NCBI GenBank assembly: GCA_043823435.1 | Contig: JBDRAV010000002.1 | Span: forward strand, 1 to 59,754 | Direction of reading: 5' to 3' | DNA length: 59,754 nt | From: Candidatus Omnitrophota bacterium | Lineage (GTDB): Bacteria > Omnitrophota > Gorgyraeia > Gygaellales > Profunditerraquicolaceae | Shown: one piece after another, positions 12,066-20,607 of the stretch | Numbering within the stretch: position 1 is the first letter of the stretch | Layout: each line of letters begins with the position of its first letter | The notes under the pieces: generated by a model | What the model was told of the DNA's origin: nothing | Database searches by the model: none | Seen by the model: only the letters and a program-made list of their open reading frames with translations | Made by a program: the position numbers and the translations under genes

Positions 12066-12093
12066 TTGACAAATCCAAAAAAAGTGGTATACT
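12066..12093 (+). promoter_or_regulatory. sigma70 promoter of the cold-shock gene
   Basis: TTGACA-16nt-TATACT with an extended -10 TG. Confidence 0.8.
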
Positions 12094-12130
12094 AGGCCCA
12101 GTAGTAAATAAGAGATTAGAAAGTCTAGGG

Positions 12131-12168
12131 CCGGGAGGTTTAGAGGATCTAACCTTTCGGTTTTTTTT
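12131..12168 (+). terminator. Intrinsic terminator inside the csp 5' leader
   Basis: CCGGGAGGTT...AACCTTTCGG stem followed by T8, between promoter and start codon. Confidence 0.7.
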
Positions 12169-12216
12169 GTTTCTGTCGTTATTTACTATAATTTTCTAGA
12201 AAGGAGGTAGTAAATA

Positions 12217-12417
12217 ATGGCAAAAGGTAAAGTGAAGTGGTTCTCGAACCAGAAAGGTTACGGATTTATCACCCCTGAATCAGGCAATGATGTGTTTGTG
12301 CATCATAGCGCTATTCAAGGCGATGGTTATAAGTCTTTAGCCGATGGTGAGGAAGTTGAGTTTGAGGTGGAACAAGGACCTAAAGGCGAACAAGCTACAA
12401 AAGTAGTAAAGTTATAA
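12217..12417 (+). CDS. cspA: Cold-shock protein (CspA family)
   Basis: [15 protein letters not shown] (RNP1), DVFVHHSAI (RNP2), [11 protein letters not shown]. Confidence 0.97.
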
Positions 12418-12431
12418 CCTTAAAAAATAAC

Positions 12432-12465
12432 AACCCGGTTCTATTAGGGAGCCGGGTTTATTTTT
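12432..12465 (+). terminator. Intrinsic terminator after cspA
   Basis: AACCCGGTTC...GAGCCGGGTT stem then TATTTTT. Confidence 0.75.
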
Positions 12466-12475
12466 AAGCTAGGAC

Positions 12476-12817
12476 ACAGCTTACTCGTACTTCCCGCTGA
12501 TCATGTAAATTATAAGGCGGTCCCCCCGCATTTATCTAAGGTAGATGAGCGGGGCGTACTCGTAAGTTGTGGGTATCAAACCTACCCTCCTTTTATGTTT
12601 ATTAATAAGGAGGGAGGTTAATCGTCCTTCGCTTTGCTTAAGGAATCGGGGACGATTCTAAAACGAAGTAAAGAACCTAGCCCATACAACTTACTCGCAC
12701 TATCGTGCTCGTAAGTTGTGGGTATCAAGCCTACCCTCCTTTTATGTTTATTAATAAGGAGGGAGGTTAATTCGCCCAAACAACTTACTCATACTGTCGT
12801 ATTCGTAAGTTGTGGGC
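12476..12817. repeat. Modular hairpin array between two cold-shock genes
   Basis: Three ACA(A/G)CTTAC-TC-stem...stem-TC-GTAAGTTGT modules; 64-nt direct repeat 12559-12622 / 12708-12771 with 63 of 64 identical. Confidence 0.9.
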
Positions 12818-12837
12818 TCATTAAACAGGAGGAGTTG

Positions 12838-13044
12838 ATGCACACAGGAAAGATCAAGAAGTTGGTTCGTGACAGGGGTTTTGGGTTTATCAGTGATACG
12901 GACGGCAGGGAAGTATTTTTTCATCAGTCAAGCCTTCTGGATGCTAAATTCGATATTTTGAACGAAGAGCAGTCAGTAGAGTTTGAGATAGAGCAGTCTC
13001 CAAAGGGCCCGCGCGCCATCAACGTACGCATCACGCAACAATAA
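12838..13044 (+). CDS. Second cold-shock domain protein
   Basis: DRGFGFI, EVFFHQSS, VEFEIEQSPKGPRA; ATG 12838 after AGGAGG (the 12718 start in the track runs through repeats). Confidence 0.92.
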   Translation: MHTGKIKKLVRDRGFGFISDTDGREVFFHQSSLLDAKFDILNEEQSVEFEIEQSPKGPRAINVRITQQ

Positions 13045-19856: not shown

Positions 19857-19915
19857 AGGGACACTTCTTAACCCAATCGAGGGACACTTCTTCAGCCAAT
19901 CGGAGAAGTGTCCCT
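19857..19915. repeat. REP-like palindromic cluster (GGGACACTTCT family), left flank of RAYT
   Basis: AGGGACACTTCTT at 19857 and 19880; AGAAGTGTCCCT at 19904. Confidence 0.85.
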
Positions 19916-19955
19916 TTTAATTAATGGGGAATCAGTTAAAGAATAAGCGATAATA

Positions 19956-20438
19956 TTATATTTCTAGTATGGGATCTAAAAGGCCTGATCCCCTATTTAA
20001 CGTCCTGGATTTCCAACTACTCCATTCGTATCCAAGTGGCGATGAGGTCAAATCCGCTCTAACTGGATTATATTCGATGTAGTTTAGGCAATCTACAAGA
20101 TACTGATCTTTTTGGATAATCATATTCTTAAATCTTCCCTGCCAAAGGTGGCCAACCTTATTATATTTCTTATTGAACCAAATTGTATATGTCAGATCGA
20201 TACCTTGCATAAGCTTTCCTAGATCGTTTATTTTCTTAACTTCAATAATTAGATGGATGTGATTAGGCATCAGACAATAGGCGTATAGCTTGAAGTGGTA
20301 TTTTCTTTTATAATGGACCAGGATTTCCAGATATTTGTTAAAGTCCACATCTTCTAAAAAGATTTTTTGTTTTTGATTACCCCGTTGAATAATATGGTAA
20401 CACACATTTGGTATTATTAATCTAGGGCCCCTAGTCAT
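19956..20438 (-). mobile_element. REP-associated tyrosine transposase (RAYT, Y1 HUH family), apparently intact
   Basis: YHIIQRGN, YCLMPNHIHL (HUH), GHLWQGRF, YIEYNPVRA, YEWSSW; ATG 20438 with GGAGG RBS; flanked by REP-like palindromes. Confidence 0.9.
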
Positions 20439-20455
20439 ATTTATCACCTCCTCTA

Positions 20456-20485
20456 TAATAGACGAAGCAAAAGGGAGTTTCTAAC
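20456..20485 (-). promoter_or_regulatory. Putative ECF-sigma promoter driving RAYT
   Basis: Minus strand GTTAGAAAC-N12-CGTCTATTA; same motif and spacing as at 21234 and 25334. Confidence 0.65.
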
Positions 20486-20502
20486 ATAAAATTTTATATT
20501 AA

Positions 20503-20561
20503 GGGGACACTTCTCGCTTTGACCGAAGAAGTGTCCCTTGATTGTCAGGAGAAGTGTCCCT
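20503..20561. repeat. REP-like palindromic cluster, right flank of RAYT
   Basis: GGGGACACTTCT at 20503; AGAAGTGTCCCT at 20527 and 20550. Confidence 0.85.
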
Positions 20562-20607
20562 AAAAAAGATTTATAATTAGGTTAGTTGGTGCTATAATAC
20601 GGCTATT

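Follow-up and report, generated by a model that had tools for sequence, protein, structure and literature searches.

A modular hairpin-repeat array between two cold-shock genes of an Omnitrophota bacterium and the dispersed hairpin family to which it belongs

The csp1-csp2 locus and its hairpin modules

The stretch of DNA analysed here (the window; 59,754 nt, C2:1-59754) comes from a Candidatus Omnitrophota MAG of 786 kb in 21 contigs, 58.5% complete. Two cold-shock genes, csp1 and csp2, lie in tandem on the + strand with 421 nt between them, and their spacer holds an array of hairpin modules (12476-12826) that starts immediately 3' of the csp1 terminator tail TTTTTAAG and comprises three A hairpins, two near-identical B hairpins, one C and a nested 65-nt D (Table 1). 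The last hairpin, A3, ends 2 nt before the csp2 SD and 14 nt before the csp2 ATG, and a promoter scan found no + strand sigma-70-like promoter inside the array. A sub-threshold match to the cspA thermoregulator (RF01766; 43.4 bits vs. a gathering score of 78, E = 1.9e-9) covers the 5' UTR and coding sequence of csp1 (12110-12462) and thus sits outside the array.

Table 1. Features of the csp1-csp2 region, in positions of the window
Feature	Position	Strand	Basis
csp1 promoter, TTGACA-16-TATACT	12066-12093	+	promoter scan
csp1, 66-aa cold-shock protein	12217-12417	+	ORF list; orthologues in 6 congeners; flanks the array upstream
csp1 canonical intrinsic terminator (stem + T-run)	12432-12465	+	terminator scan; kept in the empty sites of congeners
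A1, ACAGCTTAC-TC-GTAC..(65 nt)..GTAC-TC-GTAAGTTGT, with D nested in the apical loop	12476-12570	+	direct reading, repeat search, fold
D, nested 65-nt branched hairpin TTCCCGC..GGCGG..CCGC..GCGGGG	12491-12556	+	nhmmer inventory; flanks of other copies
B copy 1, hairpin CCCTCCTT / AAGGAGGG with conserved A/T-rich loop TTTTATGTTTATTAATAA	12579-12622	+	repeat search, module inventory
C, optional ~60-nt hairpin module between B and A	12621-12680	+	module inventory
A2, GCCCAT-ACAACTTAC-TC-GCAC-TATC-GTGC-TC-GTAAGTTGT-GGG	12680-12722 (core 12686-12719)	+	repeat search, nhmmer alignment
B copy 2, one mismatch to copy 1	12728-12771	+	repeat search, module inventory
A3, complete form: P1 TTAAT / TC / P2 GCCC / bulge AA / P3 ACAACTTAC / TC / P4 ATAC / loop TGTC / GTAT / TC / GTAAGTTGT / GGGC / TC / ATTAA	12767-12824 (core 12780-12813)	+	covariance-model match 12765-12826, 68 bits
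csp2, 68-aa cold-shock protein; SD AGGAGG 12827-12832, ATG 12838, coding region 12838-13044	12827-13044	+	sequence, ORF list

The core of hairpin A is a rod of ~60 nt made up of P1, a TC/TC loop, P2, a 2-nt bulge, P3 (AYRANTTAYG / CRTAANTYRT), a second TC/TC loop, P4 and a variable tip. Aligned with its flanks, the full core reads, 5' to 3', TAAAT, TC, GCCC, the 2-nt bulge, ACAACTTAC(G), TC, a variable stem/loop, TC, (C)GTAAGTTGT, GGGC, TC and ATTTA, and it is usually followed on its 3' side by GGAGG-N5-8-ATG, or by ATG directly. The left outer arm of A1 is atypical, showing no P1/P2 pairing and leaving this copy without a proper outer stem. An initial annotation of this DNA had described three modules with differing yet complementary inner stems (GTAC/GTAC, GCAC/GTGC and ATAC/GTAT), a TC/TC 2x2 loop in all three and an alternating duplicated hairpin, our B, and direct reading together with a repeat search bore out each of these points; the longer repeat that contains B measures 68 nt within the array and is 97% identical. 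Its placing of the end of the last module at 12817, about 20 nt before the csp2 ATG (21 nt by our reading), was right for the inner part of the hairpin, but the stem continues to 12824 by way of a second TC/TC loop and a TTAAT/ATTAA helix. Module C, unnamed in that description, is an addition. For the 380-nt region that includes the array, the folding z-score is -9.8 for + strand RNA and -8.4 for - strand DNA; none of 100 shuffled sequences folded as well.

A dispersed family in the genome and the phylum

The modules of the csp array recur throughout the host genome. The pattern ACTTACTC..TCGTAAGT has 13 exact matches there vs. none for the reversed control, the array used as a BLAST query returned 30 matches in the 786 kb, iterated nhmmer resolved 36 distinct A loci on 11 contigs, and a covariance model found at least 37 A copies, per-genome counts from this model being lower bounds. 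Tandem B-A arrays with a period of 92-94 nt also occur at C3:76380-76700 and C13:12541-12767, and the units of the tandem arrays are 97-100% identical. The modules keep a fixed relation to each other, as evidenced by: 1) the 25 copies of B, which always have the same orientation as A and lie directly upstream of it, either at 3 nt or via C; 2) the eight copies of C, seven of which lie between B and A; 3) the 15 copies of D found with nhmmer, five of them in apical loops of main-type A hairpins, ~6 in A-type hairpins with another P3 (ACAATTTATG, AAACTTATG and similar) and ~4 elsewhere, some beside a tRNA gene. At C4:20565-20638, C15:39946-40014 and C13:41460, A hairpins of the host genome carry another kind of apical insert, which we call E (~45 nt, CACCTGCTTATCTGATAACAGGAGCAGG), and in relatives (L054, L055, L123, L142 and others) a variant has the 2-nt bulge of A replaced by an extra small hairpin (GCAGAC-ggccttacggcc-TACAACTTAC..). 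With inserts at the bulge and at the tip, both appear to be insertion points, giving rise to three-way junction forms. A 3.2-kb contig bounded by two A hairpins was considered as a possible transposon and rejected, as it is the rpsB-tsf-pyrH-frr operon.

Beyond the host genome, scanning 185,579 species genomes with a pattern gave 101 stretches; with few exceptions these carry the label Candidatus Omnitrophota, the rest including mislabelled MAGs. A covariance model (R1) of the kind proposed in the initial annotation was built from 59 copies and matched 101 of the 121 genomes (64 of 76 genera) of the host's order, and 92 of 151 genomes (69 of 112 genera) in a sample of the phylum at a cut-off of E <= 1e-6. 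The hairpin family is thus specific to Omnitrophota and spread across the phylum, and no description of such a hairpin repeat in Omnitrophota was found in the searchable literature. The initial annotation had reasoned that a match to a known REP/MITE family scattered genome-wide would make the array a generic repeat, and scatter throughout the genome and the phylum is what we found; an Rfam search, which it had also proposed, returned no family matching the array at E <= 10.

Comparison with congeners traces the history of the csp spacer itself. The order csp1-csp2-radical-SAM is kept in all six same-genus genomes, but in four of them (G001, G002, G003 and G005) the csp1-csp2 spacer is only ~70 nt long and has no element, consisting of the terminator, TTTTTTAAG, a few bases and the SD, vs. 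~200 nt in G004, with the order inverted A, B-like hairpin, A, and 421 nt in the host genome. The empty spacers include those of the closest relatives by radical-SAM identity, G005 (87%) and G002 (84%). Since the csp2 SD is already present in these empty sites, the element did not supply it. Together with the near identity of the B units at the csp locus (98%), the mixture of empty and filled spacers among congeners points to a lineage-specific insertion followed by local amplification. No direct repeat was found on searching for a target-site duplication at the two junctions (after TTTTTAAG and before ACAGGAGG), and the terminal ATTAA/ATTTA of A is a co-varying P1 arm, not a duplication. In the congener G005 (C105, L130), a truncated small GIY-YIG ORF (MPWHVYIIKCKDGKLYTGITNNLERRIKDHNKELRILT*) lies ~170 nt upstream of the csp1 orthologue, on the immediate upstream side of the csp1 promoter, and has no counterpart at this place in the host genome.

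We regard it as very probable that the array is a dispersed repeat that was inserted at the csp locus, and the nested MITE-like element put forward as one alternative in the initial annotation came close to the truth, given a dispersed family with presence/absence polymorphism at one orthologous site. Its other alternative, a locus-specific leader with multiple binding sites for Csp or another protein, or an sRNA, did not hold. Such a regulatory leader, whether carrying Csp sites or acting as an RNA thermometer, would be in keeping with the place of the array between two csp genes, with its end just before the csp2 SD, and weakly with the cspA-thermoregulator match, although this match falls on csp1 and not on the array. 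However, the same modules precede dozens of unrelated genes, and the empty orthologous spacers in four of the six congeners with the same gene pair refute a conserved Csp-specific leader, so that we give this reading almost no credence. Most likely the element is tolerated at the csp locus as a passenger and transcribed as part of the csp2 leader, with no role as a dedicated regulator. It follows that the csp2 leader should not be viewed as a special cold-shock riboregulator, and that annotation pipelines should treat such arrays as repeats.

Compensatory changes, gene starts and the folding molecule

That the structure of hairpin A is under selection, as the initial annotation had proposed on the basis of three modules, is supported by strong covariation across dozens of species. 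In the alignment of the 59 copies, tested on the structure P1-P2-P3-P4 against 500 shuffles with five measures, 91.9% of the cells were paired vs. 80.1 +/- 0.6% in shuffles, two-sided changes were found at 16 pairs in 148 cells vs. 50 +/- 5 cells, and the covariation score was 0.302 vs. 0.104 in shuffles and at most 0.074 with the partners slid; 0 of 500 shuffles reached the observed value on any of the measures. These data indicate that the compensatory changes are real and family-wide.

The manner of pairing bears on the molecule that folds. In helix 1 (P1-P3), 98.6% of cells are paired, and the 1111 cells comprise 1086 Watson-Crick pairs, 10 G.T, 4 A.C and 11 others, which puts G.U at 0.9%; one-sided changes number 7 vs. 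115 two-sided. In an RNA under selection, G-U intermediates are normally frequent and, on the transcribed strand, clearly outnumber A-C. No significant wobble asymmetry by which the folding strand could be chosen was found here (10 vs. 4; 18 vs. 15). Nearly pure Watson-Crick pairing with no excess of wobble favors a constraint of DNA complementarity, i.e. an ssDNA hairpin or a cruciform, and we lean toward a DNA hairpin as the main constraint on A. By the features expected of an Rfam-type RNA, the family also falls short, with no Rfam match, an orthologous spacer that lacks the element, and this low proportion of G.U. The element is strand-asymmetric as well: 46-59 of the 59 copies keep the TC/TC loops, and the bulge lies on the 5' arm without exception; on the opposite strand of A, tandem G.A pairs would stand in place of the TC/TC loops. 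Hairpins that proteins read typically show conserved mismatches of this sort.

The same features bear on whether a reader has to be invoked at all. Palindromic DNA that has no function and no enzyme, being spread and homogenised by slippage, template switching and recombination, would account for the 97-100% identity of tandem units and for chimeric copies such as A1, and it would fit with no partner gene having been found in the genus. Nevertheless, comparison of classes within the phylum shows drift in the other helices but conservation of the TC/TC mismatches, the bulge and the P3 sequence, a pattern that needs selection by something reading the hairpin; we consider the neutral explanation improbable.

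The position of A relative to genes is highly ordered. All copies in the host genome are intergenic and ~32 of the 36 are co-oriented with both neighbors. When the copies of this genome and its relatives are taken together, 78 of 113 have a same-strand ORF start at most 80 nt downstream, at a median of 10 nt, vs. 21 of 113 in the opposite direction. Since 88% of the junctions in the host genome are co-directional anyway, the junction-type test is weak (p = 0.017). In G035, a divergent junction (L019) has two hairpins standing back to back, each toward its own gene start; at L188 of the same genome, the arrangement was resolved on the - side, where the - strand copy abuts the ribosome-binding site and start of its own gene; and in G016 (L189), an inverted A follows the stop of a co-directional gene and a sense A lies directly before the start codon of the next gene. 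By these junctions, orientation tracks the adjacent gene and not only the direction of replication. Some A copies precede or abut RNA genes (tmRNA, tRNA), and crude ORF calls mislabel as antisense those that precede RNA genes. At L199, L212, L227, L235 and L239, A is followed by an apparent structured RNA gene, which in L227 begins with GGGGCTGATT.. ~75 nt after the hairpin, presumably the 5' end of a tmRNA; at C16:27742 of the host genome and at L076, L124 and L128, A abuts the 3' end of a tRNA gene that runs in the opposite direction.

Such positions invite a reading in which the primary function of A lies at the RNA level, with A as a co-transcribed intercistronic or 5'-leader element, e.g. 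an RNase III-type site, a 5' stabiliser or an insulator that frees the ribosome-binding site. Several observations speak for it: 1) A copies run in the direction of the genes, with 0-25 nt between their end and the ribosome-binding site or start codon; 2) at the divergent junction, each hairpin faces its own gene; 3) a rod of ~24 bp with internal loops has the size of an RNase III substrate; 4) the array folds strongly as + strand RNA; 5) several downstream genes begin right after CATTTA with no SD of their own. In this last case, the fold could bring the SD-like GGAGG of B to the start codon. The intergenic hairpins of phage T7 polycistronic mRNAs serve as a model for the insulator, and T4 gene 38 for an SD brought near the start. 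In contrast to RNA families, however, the pairing of A is near-pure Watson-Crick, with the scarcity of G.U and of one-sided changes given above; furthermore, the element is missing from the orthologous spacer of four of six congeners and from 20 of the 121 genomes of the order, some copies lie beside RNA genes or antisense to their neighbors, and no Rfam family matches. We consider a primary role at the RNA level unlikely.

Candidate partner enzymes and comparison with known systems

The window itself contains a Y1_Tnp (RAYT-like) gene of 163 aa on the - strand (19956-20447), 7 kb from the array, and a REP/BIME/REPIN family mobilised by this RAYT would be in line with copies that are short, imperfect, intergenic palindromes in mosaic arrays, and with the inverted A doublets of relatives. 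However, a RAYT was rejected as the partner of A since 0 of 30 Y1_Tnp loci in relatives (94 kb; covariance model, filters off) carried an A hairpin, and the two do not co-occur, A being present without Y1_Tnp in G027, G028 and G032 (at least 14-43 copies) and Y1_Tnp without A in G036, G038 and G040. In addition, A lacks a 5' GTAG, and the RAYT of the window is bracketed not by A but by GGGACACTTCT..AGAAGTGTCCC. We find this alternative very improbable. The bracketing repeat, present on both sides of the gene (19857-20565), is a second, unrelated hairpin repeat, REPtron-like and independent of A/B/C/D; its repeat word has 40 occurrences in the genome vs. 0.4 expected.

Another candidate emerged from small GIY-YIG nucleases in A-rich genomes belonging to other families within the order, where 7 of 29 small GIY-YIG loci have A within 300 nt; nine of 11 hairpins lie in the nearest 17 kb of 72 kb, a ~15-fold enrichment, as determined by the covariance model with filters off (nhmmer, which is insensitive to P3 variants, was negative there). 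In G046 (three times) and G032, the genes form cassettes with the layout stop codon, inverted A, CCCGCCCTTTTGG, ~90-aa GIY-YIG ORF, CCAAAAGGGCGGGG, TTAATTC, A, TCATTAA, SD, ATG, in which the left arm of B precedes the nuclease gene, the right arm of B follows it and inverted A hairpins act as brackets. The nuclease is UPF0213/YhbQ-like (Pfam GIY-YIG and, as best PDB match, 1zg2, E = 1.4e-6). The host B aligns to the fused cassette ends of G046, on the left with AACTTA-CCT..CCTTTT and on the right with ATAGTTTATT..AA.AAGG.GG..TTAATTC, from which the short host units are plausibly gene-less derivatives of such cassettes; the nuclease gene may instead be a secondary invader of a pre-existing hairpin B and not the element's own engine. 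Across the order, at least three sequence types of small GIY-YIG gene can be told apart (LYIVQCRD..LYTGITTD, WHVYIIECKDGKLYTGITNNLERR and ..YIG.TNDLERRL.EHN, the type borne by the cassettes), with a hairpin context that differs by type. Only the ..YIG.TNDLERRL.EHN type was seen with hairpin A.

Searches closer to the host gave a different picture. None of the nine small GIY-YIG loci in seven genomes of the genus has A within 1.5 kb, and no A lies near the one small GIY-YIG gene of the host (C17:4851-5100); a tblastn search using the cassette nuclease found no match in the host genome (58% assembled), nor was a GIY-YIG cassette with A or a pair of orphan arms bracketing a gene found there. Among A-rich genomes, G035, G131 and G079 carry at least 33, 38 and 25 A copies, respectively, with only a UvrC-type GIY-YIG match. 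Taken together, we surmise, tentatively, that a GIY-YIG nuclease could be, or could once have been, the partner of hairpin A.

A system of this kind has a recent precedent in the Ssn nucleases with their NTS/SRM hairpin repeats (Chenal et al. 2025, Nat Commun 16:2388, PMC11893778). By this likeness, the account that we favor is that the csp array is probably a locally amplified cluster of gene-less (non-autonomous) copies of an Omnitrophota modular hairpin element, A/B/C/D, which is Ssn/NTS-like and whose mobilising enzyme is a candidate. In the host lineage, the element would have entered the spacer downstream of the csp1 terminator and upstream of the csp2 ribosome-binding site, and then expanded in tandem. 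Hairpin A would be kept because it must fold as ssDNA and be read by a trans-acting nuclease, for which the cassette GIY-YIG enzyme is the best candidate by analogy with Ssn/NTS. Nicking by this enzyme might start the copying or exchange of cassettes between stop-to-start spacers, and the orientation of the copies might be fixed by a need of the cassette for read-through transcription and a usable downstream ribosome-binding site. A bolder version, which we put forward as possible and on the whole doubtful, is that A and its modules are the cis-elements of an undescribed class of mobile cassettes, with a ~90-aa GIY-YIG protein acting on folded ssDNA as the sole protein, sense insertion into stop-to-start junctions, and the hairpin also serving the host as an intercistronic mRNA module. 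This last property would explain the persistence of A in genomes that lost the nuclease.

Among known hairpin repeats, the REP/BIME/REPIN families of Proteobacteria resemble A in being dispersed intergenic imperfect palindromes with mosaic arrays, inverted doublets, compensatory stem changes and a long life as families; they differ in that A has neither Y1 linkage or co-occurrence nor GTAG, the local RAYT has its own flanking repeat, and A is biased to gene starts whereas REPs are biased to 3' ends. BOX of Streptococcus pneumoniae and Correia of Neisseria are likewise modular, with an internal module that can be reiterated, intergenic, co-transcribed and strain-polymorphic, and they can alter the expression of neighbors. 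Their sequences, however, are unrelated to A, for which no terminal inverted repeats with a target duplication were found, and their range is a species or genus vs. a phylum for A. Integron attC sites share with A imperfect hairpins with paired boxes, extrahelical bases or mismatches, a variable tip (from 4 nt to a branched insert), strand specificity and a place between co-oriented genes; unlike attC sites, as judged by eye, A is scattered at housekeeping junctions with no cassette array beside an integrase, and it does not conform to the R-box RYYYAAC/GTTRRRY.

The closest likeness is to Ssn/NTS. Both systems have oriented hairpin repeats (hundreds to dozens) that carry conserved non-palindromic features and cluster around genes, and in both, a ~90-aa single-domain GIY-YIG gene is bracketed in some genomes by inverted repeat copies, these genomes being, in the case of A, distant relatives of the host; the inner foot of A, CGTC-stem-TCCG, also recalls the CGTC-stem-CYRG of NTS. 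The SRM motif, HGTCWYN(0-2)YYVSBRHN(0-5)WNVSBRGN(0-2)RNCYNB, matches neither A nor D, with 0 occurrences in the array and 2 in the genome vs. 0-8 in shuffles. The Omnitrophota hairpin, comprising four helices, a bulge and two TC/TC loops, is far longer than NTS; it is modular and is placed precisely in stop-to-start spacers; moreover, the cassette nuclease looks UPF0213/YhbQ-like and no GIY-YIG linkage was found in the host genus. The family is a structurally distinct variant of hairpin-repeat systems, resembling REP/BIME and, to a greater degree, Ssn/NTS. Across an uncultivated phylum with streamlined genomes of 1-2 Mb, a hairpin of ~60 nt whose pyrimidine mismatches are invariant has been kept at gene starts, and this family provides another test case, of different structure, for the idea, advanced in 2025 for Ssn/NTS, that tiny GIY-YIG nucleases and ssDNA hairpins shape genomes, with hairpin A as a defined oligonucleotide substrate.
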